Of a stretch of 64,000 bases of DNA, positions 5,945 to 45,971 are shown piece by piece. The notes under the pieces are model-generated. The model was given only the letters and a program-made list of their open reading frames with translations, searched no databases and was not told the origin of the DNA. Position numbers and translations under genes: made by a program. Origin of the DNA: a bacterium (GTDB taxonomy: Bacteria > Patescibacteriota > Minisyncoccia > UBA6257 > UBA9933); assembly GCA_021786355.1 (NCBI GenBank), contig JAJYNK010000009.1:517-64516 (forward strand), written 5' to 3'. Each line of letters opens with the position of its first letter. Positions within the stretch are counted from its first letter, which is position 1.

Positions 5945-5965
5945 CTGTATTTATAGGGTATTTAC

Positions 5966-16612: not shown

Positions 16613-16618
16613 TCTTTG

Positions 16619-16738
16619 CCCCGTTAGAGAAAAGTCGCCGCGAGCGACTGAAGTCGTGCTCTTAGCACGGCGTTCTCTAATGGGGTTTGCCCCGTTAGAA
16701 GTAGGACGCGTACGATGCGTCCGCGACTTCTAACGGTG
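16619..16738. repeat. Two tandem hairpin repeats of family B: CCCCGTTAGAGA...TCTCTAATGGGG (16619-16685) and CCCCGTTAGAAGT...ACTTCTAACGGTG (16690-16738)
   Basis: Each arm pair is complementary apart from single G-T and C-T mismatches. The inner parts hold small hairpins. Confidence 0.75.
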
Positions 16739-16742
16739 TTTG

Positions 16743-16793
16743 CCCCACTTGTACTTCAGCGCAAGAGCGCTGAAGTACAAGTGGGATTTTTTT
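16743..16793 (+). terminator. Terminator in the same hairpin style: CCCCACTTGTACTTCAGCGC-AAGA-GCGCTGAAGTACAAGTGGG followed by T7
   Basis: A 19-20-bp perfect stem plus a T-run ending the island. Confidence 0.8.
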
Positions 16794-17029
16794 ATTTATT
16801 ACAGTTTCATACGAATTATAAATACACACGGATTGGTGCGTATAAAAAAATAAAATAGTTTGCAAAATTAATTCGGAAATAAATTTTTAGTGGTATAGTA
16901 TACTATACCACTTAACCGTTTTATATCGCATATAAAAATTATTTATTGTAAGAATATTGATTATAGGAAAAATAATAAAAAACACCCCAGTAAATCGGAG
17001 TGTTTTTTTAAATCACTAAATAAATAAAT

Positions 17030-17413
17030 TTATAAGTTTCCGGCAATTCCTCTTATTGCTGCGACTAGCCCTTTAGCAAGCAAGCCAACCGCGACAGATA
17101 CAAGAGCCCAGAGTATATGATTTCTTGCCGCTTTGGTTTTTGCTTCATCTCCGCCGGAAGTTAAAAACTGAAACGCTCCCCAAACAATAAAAACAACCGC
17201 CAAGGCAATTAATAATCCCAATAAATAATTAGCCACTGTATCTAGCGTATCGTACACATTAGAAAGGCCGGTTATGGGGATATTTCCGGGTTGTCCTTGG
17301 CCTGGCGGAGTAAATATCGCGGCAAACGAAAATACCGGCAACGCGAGCGATAAAATCGCTCCTGAATAAATAATACTTTGTAAAACTTTTTTCATTTTTT
17401 TGTATCGTATCAA
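17030..17413 (-). CDS. VirB2/TrbC-like pilin-family protein A (signal peptide, then two hydrophobic helices joined by TSGGD)
   Basis: YLLGLLIALAVVFIVWGAFQFLTSGGDEAKTKAARNHILWALVSVAVGLLAKGLV is the characteristic two-helix hairpin. Confidence 0.5.
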   Translation of the reverse strand: MIRYKKMKKVLQSIIYSGAILSLALPVFSFAAIFTPPGQGQPGNIPITGLSNVYDTLDTVANYLLGLLIALAVVFIVWGAFQFLTSGGDEAKTKAARNHILWALVSVAVGLLAKGLVAAIRGIAGNL

Positions 17414-17442
17414 TTCGACCTCGACCTTTTTCTTTATATTTA

Positions 17443-17853
17443 TTATAACGTTTGTATTATTCCGTACAACGCGCCGATGATTCCTCGCGCGAGTAAAATT
17501 ACTAATAATCCGATTGCGGCGTATAAAACTGTTTTTTGGCCTTCCTGGAATTTTTTAGGGTCGCCTGACGCGGTCATCATTTTCCAAGCGCCGTAGATAA
17601 CTATTATCACAGCCACAGAAACCGAAACGCCGATAAAATAATCGATTATTTTGGAAAGGACGCTATCAAGAGTCGAGCCGGATCCAAAATAATTAAAAAG
17701 CTGGCCGCTCCCGCCGCTAGCAGAAGGACTTGCTCCAGTTGGCTGACCGCCGCTTGTTGTCGGCTGACCTCCGCTTGTTTCGGCTAATTGATAAAAAGCA
17801 AACAAAGGCGCGACTTTAAGCCAATTCAAAATTTTTTTAATGTTTTTTCTCAT
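17443..17853 (-). CDS. VirB2/TrbC-like pilin-family protein B, with a low-complexity TSGGQPTTSGGQPT repeat
   Basis: DYFIGVSVSVAVIIVIYGAWKMMTASGDPKKFQEGQKTVLYAAIGLLVILLARGII has the same architecture as A and C. An imperfect 21-bp tandem repeat in the DNA encodes SGGQPT twice. Confidence 0.5.
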   Translation of the reverse strand: MRKNIKKILNWLKVAPLFAFYQLAETSGGQPTTSGGQPTGASPSASGGSGQLFNYFGSGSTLDSVLSKIIDYFIGVSVSVAVIIVIYGAWKMMTASGDPKKFQEGQKTVLYAAIGLLVILLARGIIGALYGIIQTL

Positions 17854-17994
17854 CCCAGTACTACAACTTCGATTATTTTTGTGTTAATTCTCGAGGTTGT
17901 GATTTATTGATTATTCTTATTTTTATTACCCAATATCAACTTAATTCAGGTTCTCAAAAATTTATAGAGAATGTATCGAAGTTGTAGTACTGGG
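17854..17994. repeat. 20-bp perfect inverted repeat CCCAGTACTACAACTTCGAT (17854-17873) / ATCGAAGTTGTAGTACTGGG (17975-17994) flanking a 101-bp AT-rich segment. The left arm abuts the ATG of pilin gene B.
   Basis: Arms verified base by base. The start codon of B (reverse complement of CAT 17851-17853) is immediately adjacent. Confidence 0.85.
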
Positions 17995-18026
17995 CATTTT
18001 TAAAATTATAAAAAATTTTTAACTGC

Positions 18027-18377
18027 TTAGCAAGGAAATTTATTCCATGGACCTAAACTGCCGCCGACAAGAACTTTCAAAACCAAATCAACTATGAACC
18101 CGGCTAAAAGAAGAATGGCTATGCCGATTAAGATAGTTCTTATTTTTCCAACCGCTTCTTTGTACTTTCCGGGATCTCCGGCAGAAGTCATTATTTTAAA
18201 CCCCGCCCAAACCAAAGCGCCGAGCGCCAAAACAAACGCGAAAACAATGACAAAATTATAAATATTTTGAGCTAACTGGAATAAATCGCAAATAGTACAT
18301 TCGAGCTTAGCCGTTCCCGGACCGCACTGAACTAAAGGGGTCAAAGCCGCATTGGCAATATTAACTAAATTAATCAT
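18027..18377 (-). CDS. VirB2/TrbC-like pilin-family protein C
   Basis: FVIVFAFVLALGALVWAGFKIMTSAGDPGKYKEAVGKIRTILIGIAILLLAGFIV. Confidence 0.5.
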   Translation of the reverse strand: MINLVNIANAALTPLVQCGPGTAKLECTICDLFQLAQNIYNFVIVFAFVLALGALVWAGFKIMTSAGDPGKYKEAVGKIRTILIGIAILLLAGFIVDLVLKVLVGGSLGPWNKFPC

Positions 18378-18388
18378 GGTTTTTCGTT

Positions 18389-18442
18389 GTCATCCCGAGC
18401 GTGGCGAGGGATCTCGAGATTCTTCGCTTCGCTCTGAATGAC
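18389..18442. repeat. Repeated 5'-UTR element D copy 1 (GTCATCCCGAG...AGGGATCTCGAGATTCTTCGCTTCGCTCTGAATGAC)
   Basis: A near-identical copy at 33201-33262 overlaps the holB start codon. Short terminal inverted ends GTCAT/ATGAC. Confidence 0.75.
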
Positions 18443-18476
18443 TCTTTGTTGTTGGTTGTAGGTTGTTAGTTATTGG

Positions 18477-19760
18477 TTATTTAAATAAATTATTTATCTG
18501 CGCGCCGGCTTGGTCAAGCGCTTGCTGGGAATTTGTTTTTCCGTTCAATACTGATTCGACCGCGTTTGAAAAAATCTGACTGGTTTGGTCGGGGTCCGGC
18601 TGATACCAGGAATCAGCAGAAAGTGCTTGGTTTGCGAAAACATTCAAATCCGGATCATTTTGATATTGCTTGATTAAAATTTTTAAAGCCGGCGGGCGTT
18701 TTGTCGCCTGAAGATATGTAAGAGAATTTTGCGGGTCGGTTGTCAGATATTTTATAAAATCCCAGGCAAGATCGGAGTTTAAACTTTTAGAAGAAACCGC
18801 CAGACCCCAATAAGCGGCGTAATTTTTAGGATTCGAAGAATCGACTTGCGGCATAGAAGCAACCGTAAAATTCAAAAGCGGATTTTTTTGTTTGAGATAC
18901 GAAATCTGATTAGCATAACCGAAAATCATCGCGGCCTGCCCCTGACTAAATAAATCAAATGAATTGCCCAGATTCTGATTCCAAACATAGTTACTGCTGG
19001 CTGGCTTGGCAAAACCTGTATAAAAATCAAATGCGTTAGTTGCTTTGCCACTAAAATCGGCTCGCATAAAGGATGGGTCGACCATCAAAGAACCGTATTG
19101 AATCATTAGCGTATTTAAAATATCGGTTCCGTTTACAATATTTTTATCAGAGCTGCCGATAGCGGCGCCTGCTTGAAAAATCTGGCCGTTGGCTTGTTTT
19201 TTTGTAAGCCGTGTCGCCAAATTCGTAAAATCACTCCAATTATCGGGCGGAAAAACAACGGCATTGGCATTAAAAATATCTTTGTTGTAAAAAAGAGCGA
19301 GCGAGTCGAGGTAAAGCGGCGAACCATAAACTCTGCCCTGATAAGTAAAATCTTTTTCAACAACCTGCGGAAAAAGTTGGCGAATATTTGCCAAAGAAAT
19401 TTGAGCGTCAGCGGCTGGCATTAGAAGATCGCCTTGCTTTAAAAGCCAGGAGTTATGGAACATCAAAATATCCGGACCCTGATTTTTCGCCATCGCTCGA
19501 ACAAATTCATTTTCAAAATCCGCTTCGGGAATTTGTTGGTATTGAATTTGAACTTTGCGGTCGTAAAGCTTGCTATAGTTGTCTATAGTGGCCTGAAAAG
19601 CGGAAACATTATCAACTCCCCAGAAAACCAGTTTTCCCGACACGGAAGTTTTGGAGCAATTTTTGGTTATAGGGATAACGCAAAAAATACTTAAGACAAC
19701 TAAAATAAGAACAATTATTCCGACCCCGAATAAAACTATTTTTGAGCGATTATTATACAC
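18477..19760 (-). CDS. Extracellular solute-binding protein (ABC-type family 1, sugar-binding-like) with an N-terminal membrane anchor; no adjacent permease or ATPase
   Basis: About 427 aa with an N-terminal TM segment and typical SBP length and composition (..WGVDNVSAFQATIDNYSKLY..). Confidence 0.65.
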   Translation of the reverse strand: MYNNRSKIVLFGVGIIVLILVVLSIFCVIPITKNCSKTSVSGKLVFWGVDNVSAFQATIDNYSKLYDRKVQIQYQQIPEADFENEFVRAMAKNQGPDILMFHNSWLLKQGDLLMPAADAQISLANIRQLFPQVVEKDFTYQGRVYGSPLYLDSLALFYNKDIFNANAVVFPPDNWSDFTNLATRLTKKQANGQIFQAGAAIGSSDKNIVNGTDILNTLMIQYGSLMVDPSFMRADFSGKATNAFDFYTGFAKPASSNYVWNQNLGNSFDLFSQGQAAMIFGYANQISYLKQKNPLLNFTVASMPQVDSSNPKNYAAYWGLAVSSKSLNSDLAWDFIKYLTTDPQNSLTYLQATKRPPALKILIKQYQNDPDLNVFANQALSADSWYQPDPDQTSQIFSNAVESVLNGKTNSQQALDQAGAQINNLFK

Positions 19761-19770
19761 GAGTTAATTT

Positions 19771-22257
19771 TTATAGCGTAACCGCGCCAGCCAATTTGTC
19801 TCCTCCTTTTAACGTCATTATTTTTACTCCGGAGGTGGCGCGTCCCGCAGTCCGCACGCTTTTCAAGGTCGTTTTAATAATTTGTCCTTTTGTCGAAAGC
19901 GCCAAAAGCTCGGCTTCTTCAAAAATCACTTGCGCGCTGACTATTCTCCCAGTCTTGGAATTAATCTTAGCGGTTTTTATCCCTTGGCCGCTTCGCTTTT
20001 GAACTTTGTATTGCCCAAGTGAAGTTTGTTTGGCAAAACCATTTTCCGTAACAACCAAAACTTTCAGCTTGGAAAGTTTTTCCTTCGACTCTGTATTTAT
20101 TATATCAAGTCCAACGACAAAATCATCCTTTCTTAATTTTATCGCTTTAACGCCGGTGGCAATTCTCGACATCGCCCGAAGCTGGCTTTCTTTGAATCTT
20201 ATCGATTGTCCCAGAGCGGTTACGATTAAAACTTCGTCTTTGCCCGAAGACGATTTAACCCAATGAAGCACGTCGCCTTTCTGCAAATTAATACCGATGA
20301 TTCCGGTGCGTCTGATATTGGTAAAATCCTCAAGCGGAGTTTTTTTAATGACTCCATATTTAGTAGCCATTACCAAAAATTGTCCTTCCTGGCCTTTGCT
20401 TTTAGCGGGATAACTGACTATGGCGCTGACTTTTTCTTCGGGCGGAATTTCCAAAAAGTTTTGGATGACTTTGCCTTTGGCTTGCCGCGACGCCGCTGGG
20501 ATTTCATAAACCTTCGTTTGAAACACTCTTCCTTTTTCCGTAAAAAACAAAATATTGTCGTGGCTATTGGCCGCGATAAAATGCGAAATTAAATCCTCTT
20601 CTCCGACTTCAGAACCAATCAGACCTTTGCCGCCTCTTTGCTGGCTTCTAAAAACATCGGGATTTCCTCTTTTTATGTAGCCGTTTTGGGAAAGAGTGAT
20701 AACAACTTCTTCTTCGGTGATCAAATCTTCTTCTTTAAATTCCGTGAGGCCGCCTGCGACAATTTTAGTGCGCCTTTCGTCGCCGTAATTTTTTTTGATT
20801 TCCGAAAGTTCGTCTTTTATGACTTTTAAAATTTTCTGCGGACTATGTAAAAGAGCTTCCAATTCGCTTATTAACTTTTTCTTTTCTTTAAGCTCATCTT
20901 CTATTTTCTGCCTTTCCAGCGCCGCCAAAGTCGAAAGTTTCATTTCTAAAATCGCTTCGGCTTGAATTTCGGTAAGCTTGAAACGGGAAACCAAATTTTT
21001 GCGCGCTTCTTCTTTATCCTTTGATTTCTTAATCGTCTCGATGACTTTATCTATAACCGAAAGCGCTTTCGCAAGACCCTCTAAAATATGCGCCCGCTCT
21101 TTGGCTTTGCGAAGTTCAAACTCGGCTCTTCGGCGAACAACTTCTTTTCTGTGTTCGATATACTGGGCTAAAAATTCTTTCAGCGAAAGAAGCTGGGGCT
21201 GAAGTCCGCCAACCAAAGCGATTGTGTTCAAATTAAAATTCTTTTGAAGGTCCGTGTGCTTATAAAGCTGGTTTAATATTTTTTGCGCGGGCACATCGTT
21301 TTTAAGCTCAACGACAATTCTTAGTCCGTCGCGATCGCTTTCGTCGCGCAAATCTTTTATGCCTTGAATTTTTTTGTCGGTAACAAGGCCGGCCATTTTT
21401 ATCAGAAGCTCGGACTTGTTAACTTGATAGGGGATTTCGGTGATTATTATATTGAAATTATCCTTTTTTCTTTCTTCAATTTCCGCCACCGCCCTAACTG
21501 GTATGGAACCGCGGCCGGTAGAATACGCCTCGGCTATGGATTTTTTATCGTAAATAATGCCGCCGGTCGGAAAATCAGGACCTTGAACAAACTTCAGCAA
21601 GTCCTCGGTTGTGGCTTTGGGCGAATCAATCAAATGAAGAGTAGCGTCAATAACTTCGGAAAGATTGTGCGGGGGAATGCTGGTCGCCATACCTACCGCG
21701 ATACCCGAAGAACCGTTTAAAAGAAGGTGGGGGAGCTTAGAGGGAAGCACCGACGGTTCTTTTGTGGTGCCGTCATAATTGTCCAGCCAATTAACCGTAT
21801 CCTTTTCTATATCAATAAGAAGCTCTTCGGCTATTTTTGATAAACGGCACTCAGTGTATCTGTAAGCAGCCGCTGAATCTCCGTCCTGGCTGCCGAAATT
21901 GCCTTGGCCGTCAATTAAAGGATAACGAAGAGAAAAGTCCTGGGCCATTCTAACCAACGCGTCGTACACGGAAATATCGCCGTGCGGGTGATAGCTTTTT
22001 AACGTATCTCCGATAACCGAGGCGGATTTCCTATATTTGGCGCTCGCTCTTAGTCCGCTTTCCCACATTGCCCAAAGAATTCTTCGCTGAACCGGCTTTA
22101 AGCCGTCTCTGACATCCGGCAAAGCTCGCGAAACAATAACCGACATCGCGTAATCAAGATATGACTCTTGAAGCTCGTCGGATATTTCTCGCTTTTCAAT
22201 TCCTGAGCCGACGCGAGAACTGCTTTGATTATTTTCCGGTAATTTATCTTTTTTCAT
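19771..22257 (-). CDS. gyrA: DNA gyrase subunit A
   Basis: Contains [14 protein letters not shown] and the active-site region [11 protein letters not shown]. The C-terminal GyrA box QRGGKG is present. Confidence 0.9.
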
Positions 22258-22267
22258 ACGCTTTGCT

Positions 22268-22576
22268 TTACTGATTTTGTATATTTATAATTCTTTCGCC
22301 GCCGATTTTTGGTATTTTTGAATATAAATCGGAAGTTAATTCGCTAAATTTATATTTAATTGATTGGCCGATAACTGCCGCGCCGTTTTTAAAAACCGGC
22401 CAAAACGAAGTTTCGCGAGTTTCGTCCGCTTTGGAAGTCCCCACTTCTTTAATATAGGAACTCATATACCAAATCCAAAAAAAAATAACAATAATCATTG
22501 AAACCGCGCTTAAAAAAATAATCGCTTTTTTCTTTTTTTCTTCATTGGAATGCCTTATTTTACTTAACCAACTCAT
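22268..22576 (-). CDS. Small membrane protein (hypothetical)
   Basis: One TM segment ([21 protein letters not shown]). No recognisable family. Confidence 0.35.
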
Positions 22577-22585
22577 AAATCATTG

Positions 22586-23212
22586 CTAAATCGTCAATAC
22601 TACGACTTTTGTAGGCTTAATTTCCTCGATGTCTTTTTTCTTTATAACCAGCTTGTCCGTTTTTTCAACTTTCGCGGTATCTATTTCTTCCAAAAACTTT
22701 TTAATGTCGTCCGCCTTCCTTTTTAATCCGGGAACCTTATAAAAGGCGGGGATAACTATTTTCGGCTGAATCTGCTTTATCAATTTAACTGCGGTTTTTT
22801 GATCCAAAAACGGCTCGCCTCCCGCAGGCACAACCAAAATATCGATTCCGTTTAACCCTTCCATTATTTCCGGGGAAAGCGCTTGGGAAATATGCCCCAA
22901 AAAACAAAAATTTATCCCTTCCATTTCTGCCCAATAAATGGTTTTTAAAAATTTTTCAGATGATTCTTCCGCGACAAAAAAACCCTTAACGTTTACGCCG
23001 TTAAAATCATATTCTCCGGCTCCTAAAACTTCCGCGGCAGCTTCCTTGTCGGAATTATAAGACAAAGGAAAGGCGGTTAAAGTTTTTAAAACCGCGTCGT
23101 ATTTAAAACGCGGAGCTGTCAAACCGCTAGAGGACTCAATCGGATCTATTAAAATAACTTGGTCGCCGGATTGCAATTTTAAGCATCCTTCGCCGTAATA
23201 AGAAATAACCAT
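22586..23212 (-). CDS. MBL-fold (Lactamase_B_3-like) metal-dependent hydrolase family protein
   Basis: About 200 aa. The N-terminal pattern MVISYYGEGCLKLQSGDQVILIDP is typical of this family. Confidence 0.5.
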   Translation of the reverse strand: MVISYYGEGCLKLQSGDQVILIDPIESSSGLTAPRFKYDAVLKTLTAFPLSYNSDKEAAAEVLGAGEYDFNGVNVKGFFVAEESSEKFLKTIYWAEMEGINFCFLGHISQALSPEIMEGLNGIDILVVPAGGEPFLDQKTAVKLIKQIQPKIVIPAFYKVPGLKRKADDIKKFLEEIDTAKVEKTDKLVIKKKDIEEIKPTKVVVLTI

Positions 23213-23361
23213 AACAAAAGAATATCGCGTAGCCTTTAGGCGAAGCCTATATCGCGCCGAAGGCGCATTTATCCATAAATATCAGGAGGATACTTATAGA
23301 TATAGTTGATATTTGCTCGCTGACGCTCGCGATACTATAATTCACTATACCAGAGAAGCCC

Positions 23362-24519: not shown

Positions 24520-24525
24520 ATAAAA

Positions 24526-24552
24526 ACGGTCGCCTAAGGCGACCGTTTTTGT
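24526..24552 (+). terminator. Rho-independent terminator ACGGTCGCC-TAA-GGCGACCGT followed by T5
   Basis: Directly downstream of the S1 gene. Confidence 0.8.
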
Positions 24553-24587
24553 GTTGGAATTATAAATATAAAGTTGTAAAATAGTTA

Positions 24588-25949: not shown

Positions 25950-25956
25950 TTAAATA

Positions 25957-26970: not shown

Positions 26971-26990
26971 TCAAAACACTGGGGAGTTGA

Positions 26991-27298
26991 CCCCGCACCT
27001 TTTAAGCTCACAATCGTTTTTTGAAAATGTATTACATGTATATACTAAAAAGCAAGGTTAATGGTGAATTGTATATAGGAAGCACCGGTAACATCAAAAA
27101 ACGATTAGAAGAGCATAATTTGGGAAAGGAAAAAGCTACCAAAAGTTATAAACCTTGGAAAATCGTTTATCTAGAAGGCTATTTTTCTGAAAATGACGCC
27201 AGAACCAGAGAACACAATCTTAAACACTTCGGCAAGGTTTATTCCCAGCTGAAACGAAGAATTAAAAATAGCCTTCAAGAGTCTTAAAAGGTGCGGGG
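26991..27298. repeat. 16-bp perfect inverted repeat CCCCGCACCTTTTAAG (26991-27006) / CTTAAAAGGTGCGGGG (27283-27298) bracketing the GIY-YIG ORF
   Basis: Verified base by base. The right arm begins at the ORF's stop codon. Confidence 0.85.
27021..27287 (+). CDS. GIY-YIG nuclease domain protein (88 aa, homing-endonuclease-like)
   Basis: YMYILKSKVNGELYIGSTGNIKKRLEEHN matches GIY-YIG. Confidence 0.8.
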   Translation: MKMYYMYILKSKVNGELYIGSTGNIKKRLEEHNLGKEKATKSYKPWKIVYLEGYFSENDARTREHNLKHFGKVYSQLKRRIKNSLQES

Positions 27299-27346
27299 TT
27301 GATGATATAATAAAAGCGACAAAACGGGCGATCAGGAGAAAATAAT

Positions 27347-28387: not shown

Positions 28388-28460
28388 ACTTCGCGCCTAA
28401 TTATTTTTCTTTTGCAATTTGGAATTTAACTTTTTTTAGTGTTAAATAGATAAACAATGA

Positions 28461-28580
28461 ATCCCGTTAGAAATAATGAACAATATGACTTTATGTTATC
28501 AAATACTTTAATTTATAAAAACGTCGATTATTTAGCATTATTTAACTTTGGCACATTTTTTGTGCAATTTCTAACGGGAT
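28461..28580. repeat. Hairpin repeat, family B copy (ATCCCGTTAGAAAT ... ATTTCTAACGGGAT). The right arm overlaps the ATG of the next gene. Inner hairpin GCACA-TTTTT-TGTGC.
   Basis: 14-bp perfect arms about 92 nt apart. A motif ATGAACAA(T/C)AT occurs after both arms. Confidence 0.8.
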
Positions 28581-29163
28581 GAACAACATAGAAAATTATC
28601 GAAAACCTAAAATCTGCGTTTCCGGAACCGCAGAATTAAGCGATTTCAGCGAAAATACTAATTTAATCGCCGAAAAATTAGGCGAGGAAATAGCCAAACA
28701 AGGCGCGATTTTGGTTGATGGAGCAACAACCGGTTTTCCGCAATGGGCGGCAAAAGGCGCAAAAAATGTCGGGGGCTTTGTAATCGGATTTTCGCCGGCG
28801 GACACGGAAAAAAACCACGTTGAATTATTCGGACTGCCGACCGATTACCACGATATGATAGTTTATACCGGCTTCCATTATTCAGGGCGGAATTTAATTC
28901 TTACTCGATCTTCCGATGCGGTTATTGTCGGTCCGGGAAGAATCGGCACAATCAACGAATTCACCATAGCTTTTGAAGACAACAAGCCTTTGGGAATTTT
29001 ACAAGGCGATTGGGACACGGACGAAACTTTTAAAATGCTTATTGAAAAATCTCACCGCGCCCAGGAAAGGAAAGGAAAAATATTTTTTGATTCTAATCCT
29101 AAATCGTTGGTTGAAAAAATAATCGAAGCTATCAATAAAGAGACTTTAAAATACGAAAAATGA
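28579..29163 (+). CDS. LOG/TIGR00725-like Rossmann-fold protein
   Basis: VDGATTGFPQWAAKGA and VGPGRIGTINEF resemble the GGGxGxMG and PGGxGTxxE motifs of the LOG family. Confidence 0.6.
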   Translation: MNNIENYRKPKICVSGTAELSDFSENTNLIAEKLGEEIAKQGAILVDGATTGFPQWAAKGAKNVGGFVIGFSPADTEKNHVELFGLPTDYHDMIVYTGFHYSGRNLILTRSSDAVIVGPGRIGTINEFTIAFEDNKPLGILQGDWDTDETFKMLIEKSHRAQERKGKIFFDSNPKSLVEKIIEAINKETLKYEK

Positions 29164-29220
29164 CCCCAATTATTCGATGATCTTAAAAGGTCGAGAATAA
29201 ATTCATCGGGACAAATAAAA

Positions 29221-29481: not shown

Positions 29482-29506
29482 CCTTTAAATTTCTTAATAT
29501 CAAAGC

Positions 29507-30640: not shown

Positions 30641-30665
30641 ATTAGCCACTAGAAAAAGAAAAATT

Positions 30666-30737
30666 GCGCCCGTAGTTCAACGGATAGAATACATCCCTCC
30701 GAAGGATGAGATCGAGGTTCAATTCCCCGCAGGCGCA
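30666..30737 (+). tRNA. tRNA-Arg (anticodon CCG) with two C-A mismatches (acceptor 6-67, T stem 51-63)
   Basis: Acceptor GCGCCCG/CAGGCGC, D arm GTTC-AACGGATA-GAAT, anticodon stem CATCC/GGATG with loop CTCCGAA, T loop TTCAATT. Confidence 0.55.
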
Positions 30738-30782
30738 CAAAGGGAAGATTTTACCTAGCACCACCGCTGCCCATTACGAGGG

Positions 30783-31817
30783 TCAAAACCTCGCAATGTC
30801 CTTGATGGTTATCAGTAGCATCAAAGCAAGAAGCAATGCCAAACCAACAGCGTTGGCGTAACGTTCAAACTTAACAGGCAATGGAGAGCCTTTTATTTTT
30901 TCAATTAACAAAAACAAAATTCTTCCGCCGTCCAAAGCCGGAAACGGAAATATGTTTATCGCCGCCAAGTTCAAAGAAATCAGGGCTAGAAGCTGAAATA
31001 AATAAACTATACCTAATTTACTGACCTCGCCGGTGATTTTTACGATCCCGACCGGCCCGGTTAGTCCTGCTAAACTGCCCTCGCCCAAAATCGCGGTTTT
31101 AATAAGATTAAATATCGCCACATAAATCATTGAAAAAATTTCAAACGCGCTTTTTAAACCCTCCCAAACAGCTTTGAACACGTTCATTTTAGGCTGGCCC
31201 GCGTCTATCAAAGCCACTCCCAAAGCGCCTTCGCCAACAGGCGGATTTTTTCTAGGCGTTGATTTTATTTCAATTTCTTTTCCGGCGCGCTCTATTTTTA
31301 AATTAACTTTTTGCCCGCGATGCTGGTCTATAAAACTTATAAAATCTTTAGTTGTTTTAAAATCAACCAGCTTGTCATTAGATAAAATACCGCTTTCAGC
31401 GGCCGGGCTGCCCGCCTTAACATCGGTAATAAAAACCGCCTGCGGCACGCCAATCGAAAAAACAATCGCGATAAGTATCCAGCCGAGGATAAAATTCATC
31501 ACCACTCCGGCGGCGATAATAATAATTCTTTTCCAAACCGGCAAAAATGAAAAATTCCTCGATTTATTCTCTTTTGAAAGAATTTCGTCTTTATCTTCCT
31601 GGTCTTCTCCGTAAATTTTCACGAACCCGCCAAAGGGAAGCGCGTTGATACTATAAACAGTTTCTCCTTTTTTCTTTCCCCAGATTTTGGGGGGTAAGCC
31701 GAATCCGAATTCCTGAATCCAAAGCCCGAATTTTTTGGCAGTCAAAAAATGCCCTAATTCGTGGACTATAATAAAAACGGAAATAAAAATTACAACCACT
31801 ATAATTCCTAGCAACAT
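30783..31817 (-). CDS. rseP: RIP metalloprotease RseP (site-2 protease) with a PDZ domain
   Basis: HELGHFLTAKKFG zinc motif, PDZ region and C-terminal LDGG. Confidence 0.85.
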   Translation of the reverse strand: MLLGIIVVVIFISVFIIVHELGHFLTAKKFGLWIQEFGFGLPPKIWGKKKGETVYSINALPFGGFVKIYGEDQEDKDEILSKENKSRNFSFLPVWKRIIIIAAGVVMNFILGWILIAIVFSIGVPQAVFITDVKAGSPAAESGILSNDKLVDFKTTKDFISFIDQHRGQKVNLKIERAGKEIEIKSTPRKNPPVGEGALGVALIDAGQPKMNVFKAVWEGLKSAFEIFSMIYVAIFNLIKTAILGEGSLAGLTGPVGIVKITGEVSKLGIVYLFQLLALISLNLAAINIFPFPALDGGRILFLLIEKIKGSPLPVKFERYANAVGLALLLALMLLITIKDIARF

Positions 31818-31822
31818 AAATG

Positions 31823-32374
31823 TTATTCTTCTATTTCTTTAATTTTCTGTTCCAATATTTTTTCGATTTCTTCATTGGCTTTGTCGGTTGCTTCCTGAAT
31901 TTTGTCTTTTGCTTTGAATTTACCGTCTTCGGTGATTTTGCCGGCCTCGAATTCATTTTTGCTTTCTTTTATGGCTTCGTCTCTGTGGCTTCTTATTCCG
32001 ATGCGCGCTGATTCGCCTTCTTTTTTAACAATTTTAATAAGCTCTTCGCGGCGCTCTTGCGACAAAGGAGGCAGATTTATATGAATCACATTTCCGTCAA
32101 CCGAGCTGGAAACGTTTAAATTGGAAGATTCAATGGCTTTAGCGACAATATTAACCGCGTTTTTATCCCAAATTGATATTTGAATTTCTCGAGGCGGGAC
32201 AACGCTAATAGCGCCAACTTGCTTGACAGTTAATTTCTGGCCGTAATACTCCACTGAGATGTCTTCCACGAGCTTAGGAGAAGGCCGGTTGCCGCGAACC
32301 GTGCCAAGTTCCGATTTCAAATGTTCCATATTTTGTTTTAACCCAAGCTCGAGGTTTTTTAAGATAATATCCAT
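31823..32374 (-). CDS. frr: Ribosome recycling factor
   Basis: LKSELGTVRGNRPSPKLVEDI..., 183 aa, typical Frr. Confidence 0.9.
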   Translation of the reverse strand: MDIILKNLELGLKQNMEHLKSELGTVRGNRPSPKLVEDISVEYYGQKLTVKQVGAISVVPPREIQISIWDKNAVNIVAKAIESSNLNVSSSVDGNVIHINLPPLSQERREELIKIVKKEGESARIGIRSHRDEAIKESKNEFEAGKITEDGKFKAKDKIQEATDKANEEIEKILEQKIKEIEE

Positions 32375-32497
32375 TGGGTTATTTTAGCATTTAAGATCGG
32401 CGCGCGAAAGCACTATTTTATAATTAATCAAAATTCTGCGCCGCGCACTATAGTATACTATAGTGCCATCAGCTAATCCAGGGTTGTCTTCGCTTAA

Positions 32498-33205
32498 TTA
32501 TTTTTTAGCGTTTTTTAAAAGACTTTCAACCAGTCGAACTTGGAGTTTTTTGTTTAAATTAAAACGCTTCATTAAAGAAAGACGGTTAAGAGCCTCTTTT
32601 AACACGAGGTGATTTTTTTTAACGTCCTTTGCCAGTTTGGCGATTATTTCGTTAAGTTTTTCTGTTTGGTCATCGCCATTTGATTCTTTTTTTTCTTTTT
32701 CTGATTTTTCAGGATGGGGACTCGCCCTCCGAAGCCTTGGCGAAGGAGGGAAATAAATTTTCTGGAAACGCGAAGAAACGGTTGGTAAAAGATTTTCCGG
32801 ATTTTGCCCTATTAAAATTATCAAGGACTGCTTGGGCGGTTCTTCAACTATTTTTAATATCGCGCTTTGAGCTTCAGAAGTTAATTTTTCGGCTCCGGTG
32901 ATTATAACTGTTTTTCTTTTAGCCACAGCCGGCCGATAATAAAGAAATTTTTGCAGATTGCGAATTTCATCTATGCCGATACTACCCTTTTCATTGGGGC
33001 CGATAACGGACAAATCCTGCAGCAGCTTGCTTGAATCGCCAAACTTTCCGATTTCCAAAAAATTCGCCAGCTTTTTGGCAAAATTAAAAATTTCTTTTTG
33101 GCTTTCTCCGAAAAAAAAATAAGAATGGGAGAGATGGCTGTTTTCGGCAAGCGATTTAAAATTTTGTTCGGCTTCTTTGAAAAAATCCATTGGTTTATTT
33201 GTCAT
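32498..33205 (-). CDS. holB: DNA polymerase III delta-prime subunit-like (AAA+ clamp-loader lid)
   Basis: SHSYFFFGESQ (Walker A-degenerate, delta-prime-like) and the TVSSRFQKIYFPP sensor region. Confidence 0.65.
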   Translation of the reverse strand: MTNKPMDFFKEAEQNFKSLAENSHLSHSYFFFGESQKEIFNFAKKLANFLEIGKFGDSSKLLQDLSVIGPNEKGSIGIDEIRNLQKFLYYRPAVAKRKTVIITGAEKLTSEAQSAILKIVEEPPKQSLIILIGQNPENLLPTVSSRFQKIYFPPSPRLRRASPHPEKSEKEKKESNGDDQTEKLNEIIAKLAKDVKKNHLVLKEALNRLSLMKRFNLNKKLQVRLVESLLKNAKK

Positions 33206-33262
33206 CCCGAGTCGCCTTAGGCAACGAGGGATCTCTCGATTCTTCGCTACGCTCAGAATGAC
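33201..33262. repeat. Repeated 5'-UTR element D copy 2. Its end (GGGATGAC) supplies the holB ATG.
   Basis: Shares GTCATCCCGAG and AGGGATCTC..GATTCTTCGCT.CGCTC.GAATGAC with copy 1 at 18389. Confidence 0.75.
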
Positions 33263-33281
33263 AGACGCAGCCTAAATACGA

Positions 33282-33689
33282 TTATCTCTTTTTCATTTTA
33301 ATTATTTTCAAAACGTCTTTACCGCTTAAAATTTCCGCGTTAGACCCGATAACTTTGAGTCCGTTATATTCCTTAGGGTCGTGGGAAGCGGTAATTATCG
33401 CGCCCGGAGCTTTGAATTTATTAGCACAAAAGTTGAGCATAGGCGTTGTAGAAAGACCGATATCGATTATATCCAATTCACCTTTACTTCCTTCAATAAG
33501 GCCTTTCACGAAAGATTTTTTAAGTTGCGGGGAGCTCAAGCGGACATCCTGGCCGATAAAAAATTTTTTATTTTTATTTTTGGTAAAATATTTTCCGAGA
33601 GCAGAGCCAATTTCAAAAAAAGTTTTTGAATTAACATCGGAAGGATATTTTCCTCTGATATCGTAAGCTCGAAAGATACCTTGGTTCAT
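33282..33689 (-). pseudogene. Phosphohexomutase (PGM/PMM/GlmM family) fragment: domain I only, 135 aa
   Basis: Contains the catalytic-Ser loop ITASHDPKEYNG (compare TASHNP) but ends after domain I. Full enzymes are about 450 aa. Confidence 0.6.
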
Positions 33690-33690
33690 T

Positions 33691-33718
33691 GGTTAATTAG
33701 TTAATTGGTTGATTAGTT
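33691..33718. repeat. Octamer-repeat motif M (GGTTAATTAGTTAATTGGTTGATTAGTT) immediately upstream of the start codon of the 33689 gene
   Basis: Related copies at 13234-13257, 54811-54840 and 62110-62146. Confidence 0.75.
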
Positions 33719-33815
33719 CAATAATACAGAAGTAGGTCACGGATGGCAATTTTACTTTACAAAAAAACTATATCTGCTACTTTTAAGACAGCACAAATCC
33801 AGCGAGGAGGCGATT

Positions 33816-34028
33816 ATGAGACTTTCAGTCGAATGCCTAGAGGCGGCCATCACAAGATTACACAACCTTCGGGCTGCTCAGATCATCGCAGAAAACCCAG
33901 CCGTTGCCAGTCTCGTAGCGGAAGAAACCCGGGATGCTGATTACTTATTAAAAAATATCAATGGGCTCCTGCGGGAAAGAATCACCCTCGATCTGATCTT
34001 TGACAAGATAGTCAACCCCGGTAACTGA
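33816..34028 (+). CDS. Hypothetical 70-aa protein in a higher-GC insert (33740-34260)
   Basis: GGAGG RBS 7 nt before the ATG. GC clearly above the backbone. Confidence 0.35.
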   Translation: MRLSVECLEAAITRLHNLRAAQIIAENPAVASLVAEETRDADYLLKNINGLLRERITLDLIFDKIVNPGN

Positions 34029-34257
34029 ACGCCGAGATATAGTCACAGAGAAAGAGAGGCGAAAATGTGTTGGCGAGATGATGTTCACACGAACAGAGTT
34101 TGTTCTTTTTGCCACCAACCCTATTACGGAGATCTTGGCCACAGAAACTGTCCAGCGCTTCGCAAGGAAAAGTCACCGGACAAGCTGAAGAAAATTTCCG
34201 CCGCCTCCAAACATCAAAAGAAGAGTTGTTAAAAATCGATTTCGATTGGACGAAAAA

Positions 34258-34285
34258 GCAGGCCCGGCGCCTGCTTTCTTTTTTA
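34258..34285. terminator. Bidirectional terminator hairpin GCAGGCCCGGCGCCTGC with T-runs on both strands
   Basis: TTTCTTTTTT follows on the plus strand and TTTTTCG follows on the minus strand (glyQS 3' end). Confidence 0.7.
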
Positions 34286-35692
34286 CCCTATTTTTGCTTT
34301 TATATATTCCGCAAGCTCTTCTATTTTTACTCTTTCCTGTTTCATCGTGTCGCGGTCGCGCACGGTAACATCTCCTTTTTCTAGAGTGTCGTAATCAACG
34401 GTTATGCAAAACGGAGTGCCGATTTCGTCCTGCCTTCTGTAGCGCTTGCCGATATTTCCATTGTCGTCAAACTCGCACATAAAATTTTGTTTTAAATTAT
34501 CAAAAATTTCTTTTGCTTTGCCAACCAACTCCGGTTTATTTTTCACCAAGGGGAAAACCGCAACTTTAACCGGCGCTAATTCGGGCTTGAATTTCATCAC
34601 GATTCTAGTTTCTTCCTTGCCGTCTTCGCCCTTGATGGTTTCTTCGGTATAAGCCTCCGCAAGCACCGCTAAAAGAGTGCGAGTTAATCCGAAAGACGGC
34701 TCGATGCAGTGCGGAACAAACTTACTGCCGTCCTCGTCGGCATAACTTAAATCCACTCCGGAAAATTTAATATGCTGGCTCAAATCGTAATCGGTCCGGT
34801 ACGCAAACCCATGAAGCTCTCCCCAGCCCAAAGAAGGGAATTTATACTCCACATCATAAGTGTCTTTTGAATAAAACGAGCGTTCATTGTCGTCGTGGCG
34901 GCGCCATCTCATATTTTCATCGGATAATCCCAAATTTTCTTTGAAAAAACTTTTTATGTCTTCCATCCATTTTTCAAACGGAGCCCGCCAATCTTTTTCG
35001 GTTTGAGGGGGTTTAATAAAATATTCGATTTCCATCTGCTCGAATTCCCGGGTCCGAAAAATAAAATTACCCGGCGTGATTTCATTTCTAAACGCCTTGC
35101 CGATTTGAGCGATGCCAAACGGAAGCTTGGGACGCATGGTGTTTAAAATATTTTTGAAGTTGATAAAAATCCCTTGCGCTGTTTCGCCTCTTAAATAGGC
35201 AATGCTTTTTGAATCCGCCACCACGCCAATGTGGGTTTCGAAAAGAAGGTTGAACTTGCGCGCGTCGGTCCAGTCAGACCCGCCGCAATCAGGACAAACG
35301 ATTTTTAATTCGTTCATTTTTTGCCCGATTTCTTCAAACTTAAGCTTGGCGGTTTCGTCCACGCCGATTTTTTCTTCGAGCAGTTTGTCGCCACGATGCC
35401 TTGTTTTGCATTTTTTGCAATCAACCAAAGGATCGTTGAAATTGCTGACATGACCGGACGCTTCCCAAACTTTCGGGTTGGTGATAATAGCCGAATCGAG
35501 ACCAACAACGTCGTCCCGTTTTTGCACGAAAGTTTTCCACCAGGAAGAGGCGATGTTATTTTTTAATTCCGTTCCGTAAGGTCCGTAATCCCAGGCATTG
35601 GCCATTCCGCCGTAAATTTCCGAGTCAGGAAAAACAAAGCCTCGCCTTTTGCAAAGCGAGACGATTTTCTCCATTGTGAGTTCTTCTTTCAT
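34283..35692 (-). CDS. glyQS: Glycine--tRNA ligase (dimeric class II type)
   Basis: N-terminal FVFPDSEIYGGMANAWDYGPYG and class II motifs. 469 aa. Confidence 0.9.
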   Translation of the reverse strand: MKEELTMEKIVSLCKRRGFVFPDSEIYGGMANAWDYGPYGTELKNNIASSWWKTFVQKRDDVVGLDSAIITNPKVWEASGHVSNFNDPLVDCKKCKTRHRGDKLLEEKIGVDETAKLKFEEIGQKMNELKIVCPDCGGSDWTDARKFNLLFETHIGVVADSKSIAYLRGETAQGIFINFKNILNTMRPKLPFGIAQIGKAFRNEITPGNFIFRTREFEQMEIEYFIKPPQTEKDWRAPFEKWMEDIKSFFKENLGLSDENMRWRRHDDNERSFYSKDTYDVEYKFPSLGWGELHGFAYRTDYDLSQHIKFSGVDLSYADEDGSKFVPHCIEPSFGLTRTLLAVLAEAYTEETIKGEDGKEETRIVMKFKPELAPVKVAVFPLVKNKPELVGKAKEIFDNLKQNFMCEFDDNGNIGKRYRRQDEIGTPFCITVDYDTLEKGDVTVRDRDTMKQERVKIEELAEYIKAKIG

Positions 35693-35694
35693 TA

Positions 35695-37557
35695 TTATCT
35701 TACGATATCAACGGTTTGAAGAGAATCCGTTCCTGAGTTCACCGGAAGACCGGTAAATTCATCGGTCGCCGTAAGCTGAACAGCTGACAAAATCGGAAGT
35801 AGCGCGTTAGCCTGCGAAATACTGGGCGCTATTTCAACTTCAAACGTTGTTTCTATCGGTTTTCCTGTTACGCCTTTATTGGCTATTATCCGTCCGATAT
35901 TCCAAGAAACTTCTTGAGTTCGTTCATTATAGGTAGGCAGGCCGTCAGTGTCAATATTAGCGGCGACGGTCCCGGTCCACGAAGCGCCGGATTGCAAAAC
36001 CGCTTTGATTTTCGCGTCTTTTTTGTCGGTTGCGTAGTTTTTGATAATCCAATGGACAAGATACCGAGTGGGCTTATTAACTTGGGGCGGATAGGGCCCC
36101 TTTTTATTGTATTCGGCATAAGCGCTTATTTCGGTTCTTCCTCCGATTTTTGTTTCGGAACTGTTAACGCCTACTGTTTTGTCGCTGGAAATATAATAAG
36201 GAACGGTGGGCGAGGAAATTTCTCCTTCGGCTTTTAAAGAAAAATTTTTGTCGGATAATTTTTTTATCGGATAAATCGTTTTTGTTTTAAAAGAAAATGA
36301 AACCGTTCCTTTAGCGCCTTGGGAAAGATTTTTTAGCCCCGGTTCCTGCGAAGCATTCCAGATAACAGTATTGCTGTTCGAATCGAAAAACCCGTTACCC
36401 CGATAACTCGCAAAATCAAACATCGCGCCGGAAACTTTTACCTTTATAACCGCGTCCGCTAAACTATCTTCGGTGTTATTGCCATAGATGACGCTATAAT
36501 TTATCGTGTCTCCCGGAAAAGCCACGAAATTAGGATCGTTATTGGGGATGATGCTTAGAGAAAGAGGCGAGGAAGCAATGCCGAGATTGGCGGTTTTTTC
36601 ACCAAGAGGATATTCTTTGCCGTCTAATTCGATAAAAATTTTAGCCCTCACATCAAAAAACATACTATCCGGCCCAACAATGCTTCCTTTTATGGAAACG
36701 TTGTTTTCCATTCCGCCGGGCATTAAAGTTGTCCATATATTATTGCCGCTTGCGGGAGCCGGAGACGCTTCTTTGAATTTAAATGCAGCCGGATAAGCCA
36801 TTTCTAAACGGACTTTTGAAAAATTATAGTCGGAAAAATTTTTGTAGCTTGCGGTTATTTCAAATTGTTCGCCGGAAAAAACTTTTTGCGGAGCGCTCAA
36901 ATTAATGCCAACCGCCGGCTGGTCGGCAAAAATTTCAATGGTTTGTTTTTTTTCAAATTTAGTATTTAAATTCGGAGGTAAATACGAAAAGTAAACATCT
37001 ATTTTTTTTGCCGGATCGTTTGTGTCTAAAATCGCCAGCGAAAAAGATTTTTGATAAGAGTCGCCGCTTTCCAAAATTCCTATATTTTCTTCGATAACCT
37101 GCCTATCGCTATATTTGCCTAATCCGGCAACTCCTTCAGGAATCTGAATATCGATAAGCGAATCCCGCATTGCGCTTTTCGATTTGTTTTCTATGTTTAT
37201 TTTTACTTCAAACGGCTGGCCGGCTAAAACTTTACTTGGCGCTTTGGCTTCGAAAATAAAATCCTTGGTTTTTAAATATTGCGATAAATAATAACCGGCA
37301 AATGATCCGGCAATTATAAGCGTGGCAACAATCAGCCAAAAAATAACTTTTGAAAACTGGCTGACTTTTAAAAAAATCGATGAACTTGTCATTTGGCTTA
37401 TTTTATCGGAAACTCCGCTCCATTTCGGAATTGTTTGTTTTTCTTCCGGCGCTGAAATTTTTTTCTCTTCTTGCTTGGAAATTTTTGGAGTTTCTTTTTC
37501 CGATTCTTTTTTACTTCCCAAGCCGTATAAATTTTTTTCGAGATCTTCTAGACTCAT
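35695..37557 (-). CDS. Large N-terminally membrane-anchored hypothetical protein (620 aa), beta-rich repeat-like ectodomain
   Basis: A TM segment (VIFWLIVATLIIAGSFAGYYL) follows a Lys/Glu-rich N-terminus. No confident domain match. Overlaps recO and glyQS by 4 nt each, which suggests an operon. Confidence 0.45.
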   Translation of the reverse strand: MSLEDLEKNLYGLGSKKESEKETPKISKQEEKKISAPEEKQTIPKWSGVSDKISQMTSSSIFLKVSQFSKVIFWLIVATLIIAGSFAGYYLSQYLKTKDFIFEAKAPSKVLAGQPFEVKINIENKSKSAMRDSLIDIQIPEGVAGLGKYSDRQVIEENIGILESGDSYQKSFSLAILDTNDPAKKIDVYFSYLPPNLNTKFEKKQTIEIFADQPAVGINLSAPQKVFSGEQFEITASYKNFSDYNFSKVRLEMAYPAAFKFKEASPAPASGNNIWTTLMPGGMENNVSIKGSIVGPDSMFFDVRAKIFIELDGKEYPLGEKTANLGIASSPLSLSIIPNNDPNFVAFPGDTINYSVIYGNNTEDSLADAVIKVKVSGAMFDFASYRGNGFFDSNSNTVIWNASQEPGLKNLSQGAKGTVSFSFKTKTIYPIKKLSDKNFSLKAEGEISSPTVPYYISSDKTVGVNSSETKIGGRTEISAYAEYNKKGPYPPQVNKPTRYLVHWIIKNYATDKKDAKIKAVLQSGASWTGTVAANIDTDGLPTYNERTQEVSWNIGRIIANKGVTGKPIETTFEVEIAPSISQANALLPILSAVQLTATDEFTGLPVNSGTDSLQTVDIVR

Positions 37558-38132
37558 ACTTTTATCAATATTAACTCTTTTTTACTTTCTTTTGAAGAAT
37601 GCTCTCTGCACAAAAAATTTTGGTTTTCTTTATTAAAAAATTCCGGATTTTCTTTCTGGCAAATTTCACAGACCGCGAACCGCGGATCAAATCCCAGATC
37701 GCGTAAAATTATTTTATAAGCATCTTCCAGTTTCGGGTTTGTTTTAAAAATATCCACAATCGAATGCCAAAGTTGCTGATCCGGCTGAAATTCAAAAGCT
37801 GTTTCATTGATAAAATTCGCGATTGTTAAAAACTTCGCCAGTTTTTCGGCTGAAGTTTTAATTCCTTGAAAATTATTCCTTTGAGAAGGCAGAGCGTCCA
37901 CCACTTGCATGCGCCCGTTTCCAACAAGGCGGATGTTTATAAAATTAAGCGGCTCCAAGTACGCGCTTAATTTTGATTTTATTCTTTTTAATCCTTTGGC
38001 CTTGGCAACGACTCTGCCCAGTTTTTCGGAATAAATATGGACTGTTGCGTCAGCTTCTCCGTTTTCTTTTTTCGCCAGCACCAAAGCTTCGGTAAAATAT
38101 TCAGTCATTTTATAATCCATAAATCTTAACAA
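37554..38132 (-). CDS. recO: DNA repair protein RecO
   Basis: N-terminal OB region (ALVLAKKENGEADATVHIYSEKLGRVVAKAKG) and a C-terminal Cys cluster CEICQKEN...CREH. Confidence 0.75.
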   Translation of the reverse strand: MLRFMDYKMTEYFTEALVLAKKENGEADATVHIYSEKLGRVVAKAKGLKRIKSKLSAYLEPLNFINIRLVGNGRMQVVDALPSQRNNFQGIKTSAEKLAKFLTIANFINETAFEFQPDQQLWHSIVDIFKTNPKLEDAYKIILRDLGFDPRFAVCEICQKENPEFFNKENQNFLCREHSSKESKKELILIKV

Positions 38133-38160
38133 AAATATTCTTATAGCTAAAGACGTTTGA

Positions 38161-38208
38161 CCCCGTTAGAAGTCGCGAACGCATCACGCGCGTCCTATTT
38201 CTAACAGG
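38161..38208. repeat. Hairpin repeat, family B copy (CCCCGTTAGAAG ... TTTCTAACAGGG), flanked by GTTTGAC on both sides
   Basis: Shares CCCCGTTAGAAGT with the 16690 copy. Confidence 0.75.

Positions 38209-43771: not shown

Positions 43772-45971
<2,200 letters not shown>

Follow-up and report, generated by a model that had tools for sequence, protein, structure and literature searches.

Bacterial miniature inverted-repeat transposable elements (MITEs), such as the Correia elements of Neisseria, RUP, Nezha and the Rickettsia palindromic elements, are short and non-coding, form a hairpin over the whole unit and leave a target duplication of fixed length. They reside between genes, beside promoters, terminators and start codons, and their presence differs between relatives. 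To our knowledge, the known families are confined to a genus or family. Here we analyze a stretch of 64,000 nucleotides (the window) of contig JAJYNK010000009.1 from a patescibacterial genome (GCA_021786355.1), in which a preliminary description had pointed out four hairpins named family B. These hairpins share the architecture, setting and variable presence of such MITEs. They are very probably non-autonomous DNA transposons of this kind, with 13-bp ends, within a wider set of CCC…GGG-ended elements that duplicate 4 bp of their target.

The window also holds a coding element of similar style, and here the Ssn single-stranded-DNA nucleases are the described system to compare with. According to the main text of Chenal et al. 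(2025, Nat Commun, PMC11893778), these are single-domain GIY-YIG proteins of ~85-95 aa whose gene lies between NTS/SRM hairpins, with repeats lacking an open reading frame (ORF) scattered over the genome. The same text reports that Ssn mini-nucleases bind the hairpin repeats flanking their own gene, and its authors note an architecture like that of an insertion sequence (PMC11893778).

Family B copies, empty sites and spread

All four hairpins are present in the window. Their limits could be refined to those given below, together with their target duplications, the neighboring terminator and an upstream ORF.

16619-16685, unstranded: family B copy 1, 67 nt, Y-shaped, with a 13-bp basal stem and two GC hairpins
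16615-16618 and 16686-16689: target duplication TTTG of copy 1
16690-16738, plus strand: family B copy 2, 49 nt
16686-16689 and 16739-16742: target duplication TTTG of copy 2, the middle TTTG being common to copies 1 and 2
16743-16793, plus strand: ancestral intrinsic terminator of gene 15662-16612, with a perfect 19-bp stem (16744-16785) and T7 at 16787-16793
28462-28579, unstranded: family B copy 3, 118 nt, AT-rich interior, variant termini TCCC...GGGA (TCCCG…CGGGA)
28458-28461 and 28580-28583: target duplication TGAA of copy 3
28457-28582, plus strand: upstream ORF of 41 codons, from the ancestral LOG ATG through copy 3 to a TGA overlapping the rebuilt ATG
38161-38209, minus strand: family B copy 4, 49 nt, in the orientation opposite to copy 2
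38156-38160 and 38210-38214: target duplication TTTGA (5 bp) of copy 4

Each of the four copies folds as a hairpin, with z = -4 to -7 against shuffled sequence. Five exact matches to the 9-mer CCCGTTAGA are present in the 64-kb window, where about 0.5 are expected by our uniform-composition estimate. Over all 49 nt, copy 4 and copy 2 read in reverse complement share 86% identity, which shows that the copies share descent and have an orientation, beyond their common arms. A copy from a metagenome-assembled genome (MAG) of Saccharibacteria (L089), read in reverse complement, matches copy 1 at 90% identity. The only ORF within the window copies is an incidental read-through of 41 codons in copy 3.

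Orthologous sites were compared in five Wolfebacteria relatives (L225, L226, L227, L228 and L229). All four copies are missing at such sites among these genomes, so the insertion polymorphism considered in the preliminary description is indeed seen. Past the orthologue of gene 15662-16612, L227 and L228 have just one TTTA or TTTG, with the terminator hairpin and its T7 immediately behind it; copies 1 and 2 are absent. The array in the window arose when two elements inserted, one after the other, into one TTTG directly before the ancestral terminator, which explains the three TTTG copies. Copy 1 begins 6 nt past the stop codon (16610-16612), and both copies sit in the 3' untranslated region (UTR), between the stop codon and the real terminator. 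Previously this region was described as a triple array of one family. The first two hairpins do belong to family B, whereas the third is the orthologous terminator, kept in the two relatives that lack both insertions. It had correctly been called canonical, given its T7 and conserved position, but it is not of the same family and its perfect stem is 19 bp rather than 20 bp.

The site of copy 3 is empty in L225 (LOG gene 89% identical), which reads …CCTA TGAA TTCAATAG…, and in L229 (LOG 97% identical), which reads …aaacaATGAgcaac… or, at greater length, …TAAATAGATAAACAATGAGCAAC…. Copy 3 struck TGAA within the ancestral …ACA ATG AAC AAC… of the LOG start. As noted before, its right arm overlaps the LOG start codon at 28579: at the right junction (GGGA/TGAAC) the terminal A of the copy and the duplicated TG make up the LOG ATG at 28579-28581, with the same codons following. 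The start codon was rebuilt because copy 3 is a T…A-terminated variant, which places an A before the duplicated TG. This variant is also found in coding sister elements, such as those of L139 and L186.

The upstream ORF of 41 codons is called as a 41-aa gene in L135-L138. In L226 the equivalent ORF closes after 14 codons; translational coupling through it as a conserved feature is therefore unsupported, and we do not claim it. The element of L226 (9898-10001) agrees with 28462-28579 in site, termini and TGAA duplication, with unrelated interiors and flanks that are 82-89% identical. L229, which by LOG identity is nearer to the window than L226, has the empty site. This pattern would imply a repeated hit, replacement of the interior or precise excision. 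The segment ATGAACAAYAT was reported to follow both arms of copy 3, and in 64 kb it is found only there, at 28476 and 28579. The occurrence at 28476 lies just inside the left arm and is missing from the L226 element at the same site; it might stem from conversion or a template switch.

Copy 4 splits the region from which recO (start 38132, minus strand) and gene 38284-39495 diverge. L229 lacks this copy and has just one TTGA in its place. By inspection only, the duplicated TTGAC resembles a -35 box. L226 carries an additional 49-nt copy just past the PfkB stop codon, which is absent from the window.

Family B extends well beyond these genomes. A scan of one genome per species (596 Gb) with the pattern CCCCGTTAGAR-N15-45-YTCTAAYGGGG yielded at least 120 loci, with ~10-20 chance matches by our estimate. 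The listed loci belong to Planctomycetota (49), Patescibacteria (40), Omnitrophota (16), Desulfobacterota sensu lato (8) and Nitrospirota (4); the remaining ones come from one Methanosarcinales MAG, one Clostridia MAG and one Edwardsbacteria MAG. Copies were also found on three viral contigs. The terminal inverted repeat is 13 bp long (5'-CCCCGTTAGARRY…RYYTCTAACGGGG-3') and the elements measure 37-150 bp overall, those in the window 49-118 bp. Arm positions 1-10 are set by the search pattern. Positions 11-13 are variable (R, R, mostly Y), yet they are complementary in 94%, 92% and 77% of the copies, and from position 14 inward pairing is at the chance level of 20-25%.

Duplications were counted for the 116 copies with sufficient flank, drawn from the listed loci. 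An exact 4-bp direct repeat flanks 71 of these (61%), against 0-2 in shifted registers; repeats of 5 bp occur in two copies and of 3 bp in three. All 71 duplicated 4-mers begin with Y and end with R (YNNR), the commonest being TTTA (18), TAAA (12), TCAA (7) and TTGA (6). Given that G is also enriched at -5 and C at +5, the target is palindromic. These observations correct two earlier assignments. The TTT(R) and (Y)AAA 'clamp extensions' taken as part of the hairpins are target-site duplications combined with the YNNR preference, and the TTTG or AT preceding the copies is duplicated target rather than element sequence.

A nested insertion is seen in L105, where one copy lies inside another with its own TCAA duplication, and a copy of 97 bp in L025 lies between duplicated TGAA. 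In L010, L040, L106 and L110 the copies that duplicate CGAG share longer flanks (…ACGAG, element, CGAGCAACGA), which suggests that they may have inserted into another repeated sequence. The interior is not generally constrained, since only ~20% of interiors fold better than shuffles (z < -2). A subfamily of 62-67 nt, including copy 1, combines the 13-bp basal stem with one or two unpaired A's and two hairpins with compensating changes; it is found in Planctomycetota, Omnitrophota and several Patescibacteria classes. Such a Y shape would fit a need for a folded single strand or cruciform, though it is no proof of one.

Summarizing, family B elements are short and non-coding, have terminal inverted repeats, duplicate a target of fixed length and differ in presence between relatives, with a single target at the empty sites. 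These are the characteristics by which MITEs are recognized.

GIY-YIG coding elements and the mobility of family B

One element of the window carries a gene between its inverted repeats, and three ORF-less elements have ends of the types found in its relatives.

26991-27298, plus strand: coding sister element of 308 bp, reading TTGA, CCCCGCACCTTTTAAG … one ORF … CTTAAAAGGTGCGGGG, TTGA, with inverted repeats of 16 bp
26987-26990 and 27299-27302: target duplication TTGA of this element; left junction TTGA/CCCCGCACC…
53596-53736, unstranded: ORF-less element with inverted repeat TCCCGCACCTTTCGCGGAT, of the same type as the GIY-YIG element; duplication TCAA
5965-6068, unstranded: ORF-less element with inverted repeat CCCCCACACCAAACGAGGAT, the commonest end type of GIY-YIG elements elsewhere; duplication TTTA
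39529-39666, unstranded: ORF-less element with inverted repeat CCCCCACACCAAAGAAAGAT; duplication TTTA

The ORF of the coding element (27027-27287) specifies a predicted nuclease of 86 aa that consists of a GIY-YIG domain only (PF01541, E=3e-17). Among proteins of solved structure, a profile of the protein best matches the UPF0213 proteins BH0048 (E=5e-12) and EF2693, and then the structure-specific endonuclease SLX1. In L229 the site is empty (…GGGG TTGA TGATATAATAAAAGC…) and falls within the 3' end of the transketolase gene; the element is absent from L225 and L226 as well. More than 170 close relatives of the protein were found, 84-86 aa long and mostly labelled Patescibacteria, and a metagenome scan gave at least 479 relatives. 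We retained 80 loci, from which 59 non-redundant units were used for the duplication counts. In ~65-70 of the 80 loci the ORF is bracketed by inverted repeats of 12-25 bp, the whole unit measuring 276-332 bp, and the repeats begin (A/T)CCC(C)GCACCTTT or CCCCCACACCAAT. An exact 4-bp flanking repeat is present in 22 of the 59 units, against 0-2 in shifted controls, and 37 of the 59 show YNNR on both sides. The target duplications and the empty site demonstrate that these 300-bp GIY-YIG-only units are mobile.

Ends and gene travel together, because the type of end tracks protein similarity: identity is 60% within a type and 53% between types, a difference reached in none of 2000 permutations, and in 48 of 61 cases the closest protein neighbor has ends of the same type. 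The ORF-less window elements at 53596 and at 5965 and 39529 bear exactly the two types of end that occur most often. In L103 (Staskawiczbacteria) a GIY-YIG unit lies 0.7 kb from a family B copy, and L160 also has both. A hmmsearch for GIY-YIG remnants in all six frames of the larger MITEs gave nothing better than E = 0.8, and blastn of MITE interiors against the GIY-YIG loci gave no match. Searching plasmids with the 86-aa nuclease returned one weak match.

The 4-bp target duplicated on both sides of family B implies that the target would be cut with a 4-nt stagger and then filled in, and the enzyme involved would act in trans. Three observations point to the GIY-YIG nuclease: the sole coding elements found with the same CCC(C)…(G)GGG ends, duplication length and targets carry a GIY-YIG gene alone, the nearest characterized relatives of this nuclease act on DNA structure, and the published Ssn mini-nucleases bind hairpin repeats beside their own gene. 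That such a nuclease moves family B in trans, reading the terminal stem as a hairpin or cruciform, has in our view a little less than an even chance. The nuclease would recognize the terminal stem as a DNA structure and host repair would help, after which the element would have moved and a 4-bp duplication would be left. Our wider proposal is that the CCC…GGG hairpins, family B included, are non-autonomous members of an unrecognized minimal transposon class, of which the sole protein would be a GIY-YIG nuclease of ~85 aa (Ssn/UPF0213/SLX1-like). This proposal is tentative, and we assign it a probability of roughly 35%.

A number of points argue against this account of family B and its mover. 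The search for an autonomous element covered up to 8 kb per locus around the listed family B loci, plus the viral contigs, and no ORF between family B ends was found among these at least 120 loci or on those contigs. Where two ends lay 150-6000 bp apart and their duplications matched, they belonged to neighboring separate MITEs, and the viral contigs gave 0 matches to family B ends with interiors of 240-301 nt (~260-325 bp overall). Around the listed loci no GIY-YIG gene with CCCCGTTAGA flanks was found, and GIY-YIG genes are rare near family B altogether (1 of 120 listed loci). Family B and the coding elements have nothing in common beyond the CCCC terminus, the length of the duplication and the type of target; the inner ten bases of the repeat differ. 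Furthermore, we know of no GIY-YIG enzyme that performs strand transfer or DNA joining. No polymorphism was found among near-identical strains (9 and 11 sequences, identical except for one single-nucleotide polymorphism), and there is no sign of current activity in the population; since all of these strains carry the copies, they are uninformative on polymorphism. Finally, the scan demanded perfect 11-nt arms and at least 120 loci were listed, so that the phylum counts are biased and do not form a census.

Several candidates were considered and rejected. A possible autonomous element of 2.8 kb in L046 encloses a housekeeping CBS/CCA-type gene, and the 'solo arms' noted in L060 and L099 encode the peptide VSNGG within genes. 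On inspection, an integron attC site does not apply, as the order of the GTTRRR and YYYAAC boxes is wrong and recombination at attC yields no duplication. A hammerhead-like ribozyme was considered for the Y-shaped subfamily, but the conserved core is absent.

Alternatively, a conventional DDE transposase (e.g. IS1380/piggyBac-like) could move family B in trans, in which case the GIY-YIG elements would be unrelated and share the same target preference only. A fixed duplication of 4 bp (rarely 5 bp) combined with short, sequence-specific inverted repeats is the classic footprint of such enzymes. The left end of ISEcp1, CCTAGATTC (CC-TAGA-type), resembles CCCCGTTAGAA, as does the piggyBac end, which we take to be CCCTAGAAAG; the end and duplication features of IS1380 are presumably as given in ISfinder. 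By the listed loci, the family is also abundant in Planctomycetota and Omnitrophota, whose genomes are larger and rich in insertion sequences. Against this, none of the listed loci has a transposase between family B ends, and tblastn with the ISEcp1 transposase on the window and the fetched loci, a single distant probe, gave nothing better than E = 0.46. Moreover, no DDE transposase is annotated across 5.6-61 kb of the window, the part covered by the gene annotation (Pfam). Overall, we consider a DDE transposase a rather unlikely mover. A structured RNA, cis-regulatory or small, that is kept across phyla by its function might explain why the Y-shaped subfamily of 62-67 nt keeps its architecture with compensatory changes across phyla. 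Rfam, however, gives no match: at gathering scores only tRNAs are reported, and at E <= 5 just spurious miRNA/snoRNA matches to the terminator stem. No more than ~20% of the interiors are more structured than shuffles, position and orientation relative to genes are inconsistent, and the duplications, nested insertion and empty sites show mobility, which makes an RNA kept for its function very unlikely.

The tandem clusters of hairpins beside terminators are BIME-like, and a related family of the window has GTAG in its stem. Both features recall REP/REPIN-type elements, which are spread by RAYT (IS200/IS605-type Y1) on single-stranded hairpins. Nonetheless, Y1 'peel and paste' leaves no target duplication whereas the 4-bp duplication is regular here, and no Y1_Tnp gene is annotated across 5.6-61 kb; an origin of this kind is extremely unlikely. 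Least can be said for the possibility that the copies are ordinary intrinsic terminators, or mRNA-stabilizing 3' hairpins, of independent origin with a GC clamp due to chance or convergence. Copies 1 and 2 do lie between a stop codon and a terminator and all copies fold stably, but none of the four is followed by a T-run, and therefore they are not terminators. Copy 4 is situated between divergent gene starts and copy 3 at a start codon, while orthologous sites without copies retain the true terminator. A 13-bp arm identical in at least five phyla, with 4-bp duplications in 61% of the copies, excludes convergence. Together, the empty sites in relatives and the target duplications refute unrelated terminators, and the idea is scarcely credible.

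Other elements and features of the window

Besides family B, the window contains about 12 further CCC…GGG-ended elements. The preliminary description had suggested a superfamily of clamp-ended hairpins, and it is supported in that other families of the window share the CCC...GGG ends as well as 4-bp duplications. In addition to those given above, the following elements were delimited.

14630-14709: second-family element
14831-14909, plus strand: CCCNGT(T)AGTGAA…TCTACTACNGGG element; duplication TCAA
17854-17994, unstranded: element with 20-bp perfect inverted repeats CCCAGTACTACAACTTCGAT and CAT on both flanks, between two T4SS-pilin genes
40934-41009, plus strand: GTAGTGAA family element; flanks TTTG and TTGA
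41029-41178, plus strand: GTAGTGAA family element of 150 bp; duplication TATG, with the start codon of gene 41181-41696 directly after
43565-43725, minus strand: GTAGTGAA family element; flanks CATG and CATA, abutting the start codon of gene 42730-43563 (minus)
43802-43871, plus strand: GTAGTGAA family element; duplication AATA
56614-56755, plus strand: GTAGTGAA family element; duplication TATG, within which lies the start codon of the DNA polymerase III alpha gene (56757-59927)

A second hairpin family is of the form CCCNGT(T)AGTGAA-N8…N8'-TCTACTACNGGG, with a covarying middle stem, a conserved one-base bulge and flanking repeats of 3-4 bp. Its arm resembles that of family B (CCCCGTTAG-), and three of its copies abut start codons, with the ATG within the duplication. 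For the element at 17854-17994, a 76%-identical copy is present in L229 at another locus. The RuvC ORF (53655-54218, minus) extends ~27 codons into the element at 53596-53736, which appears to have replaced the original 3' end of this gene. In the region 39497-39666, the element at 39529-39666 sits in the T-tract of the terminator after gene 38284-39495, parting the stem from most of the T's.

The gene content of the window comprises T4SS-pilin genes, small genes and dnaA/dnaN at 48.5-51 kb and fits a Candidatus Wolfebacteria (Patescibacteria) genome, as does the LOG protein, which has 97% identity to one that NCBI assigns to this group. Four hairpin elements are found within 3 kb (40.9-43.9 kb), beside a change of sign in GC skew (~43-44 kb) and upstream of dnaA (48498-49856) and dnaN; the region near dnaA/dnaN is likely the replication origin. 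Perfect palindromes based on TATAGTATACTATA, such as AGTGGTATAGTATACTATACCACT, lie between genes at five places (22-28 bp each): 14240-14263, 16889-16912, 32445-32466, 43174-43201 and 54896-54923. They may be operator or bidirectional-promoter sites. A further repeat of 66-74 nt (GTCATCCCGAGCG…GGGATCTCGAG), an imperfect palindrome with 80% identity between copies, occurs at 18377-18442 and 33191-33262.

Two tRNA genes have noteworthy surroundings. A 21-nt direct repeat (14304-14324 and 14483-14503) matches the 3' end of tRNA-Leu(tag) (14486-14568, minus) and adjoins a phage-integrase-family gene (13224-14186). It looks like the putative att sites of a small or decayed integrated element. At 41967-42695 a LAGLIDADG_3 homing-endonuclease ORF (42027-42695, minus) abuts tRNA-Asp (41967-42041), an arrangement that may recall the tRNA group I introns reported in Patescibacteria (PMC13011429).

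Comparison with known systems

Hairpins of this kind otherwise pass as terminators. The rules defined here (a 13-bp end and a 4-bp YNNR duplication) can be used by annotators in Patescibacteria, Planctomycetota, Omnitrophota and others, and unexplained clamp-ended hairpins of a minimal Wolfebacteria genome become a defined family of mobile elements. Genes are altered by such elements in several ways: insertions pile up in 3' UTRs, divide promoters or enter the T-tract of a terminator, and in one case a start codon was rebuilt exactly.

Compared on gene size, domain, the layout of a gene between hairpins and the presence of ORF-less repeats elsewhere, the GIY-YIG unit of the window is like the Ssn systems. 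A single-domain GIY-YIG gene between repeats was seen for 26991-27298 and its 59 non-redundant relatives, and for no family B copy of the listed loci. Differences are also clear, as the two flanking repeats of the GIY-YIG unit are complementary and serve as the terminal inverted repeats of a single 300-bp element. The SRM pattern HGTCWYN(0-2)YYVSBRHN(0-5)WNVSBRGN(0-2)RNCYNB has 0 matches on either strand of the window (shuffled mean 0.1). The main text of PMC11893778 is silent on target duplications, empty sites and nested insertions, all of which we show here, and it mentions neither Patescibacteria nor MITEs. The GIY-YIG-only units make both Ssn-type mobility and GIY-YIG-driven transposition directly testable. 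If the minimal GIY-YIG class is real, its transposition would proceed by a mechanism that belongs to none of the DDE, HUH, serine and tyrosine classes, and the Ssn-hairpin systems would gain an explicit origin as mobile elements.

The REP/REPIN-RAYT systems resemble the GIY-YIG units in having a small nuclease gene within its own hairpin repeats and many ORF-less hairpins, in tandem near gene ends. They differ in that RAYT is a Y1 HUH transposase that leaves no target duplication, whereas here a GIY-YIG gene is combined with a 4-bp duplication. IS1380 and piggyBac presumably share with family B the 5'-CC(C)…(G)GG-3' termini and a duplication of 4-5 bp (IS1380) or TTAA (piggyBac), the latter being a case of YNNR. 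In the literature, with incomplete coverage that makes this weak evidence, we found neither the family B repeat described nor a GIY-YIG transposon that has inverted repeats and duplicates its target; only the Ssn paper is related.

Among known MITEs, family B stands apart in two respects. Its 13-bp end is the same in at least five phyla, and such conservation across phyla without a known transposase is unusual. Furthermore, unlike MITEs with a cognate insertion sequence, it had none around the listed loci or on the viral contigs, and the coding elements of the same style carry a GIY-YIG nuclease and no transposase of a recognized family. Family B is a MITE family of unusually broad distribution, tied by its footprint to minimal elements that carry a GIY-YIG gene only.

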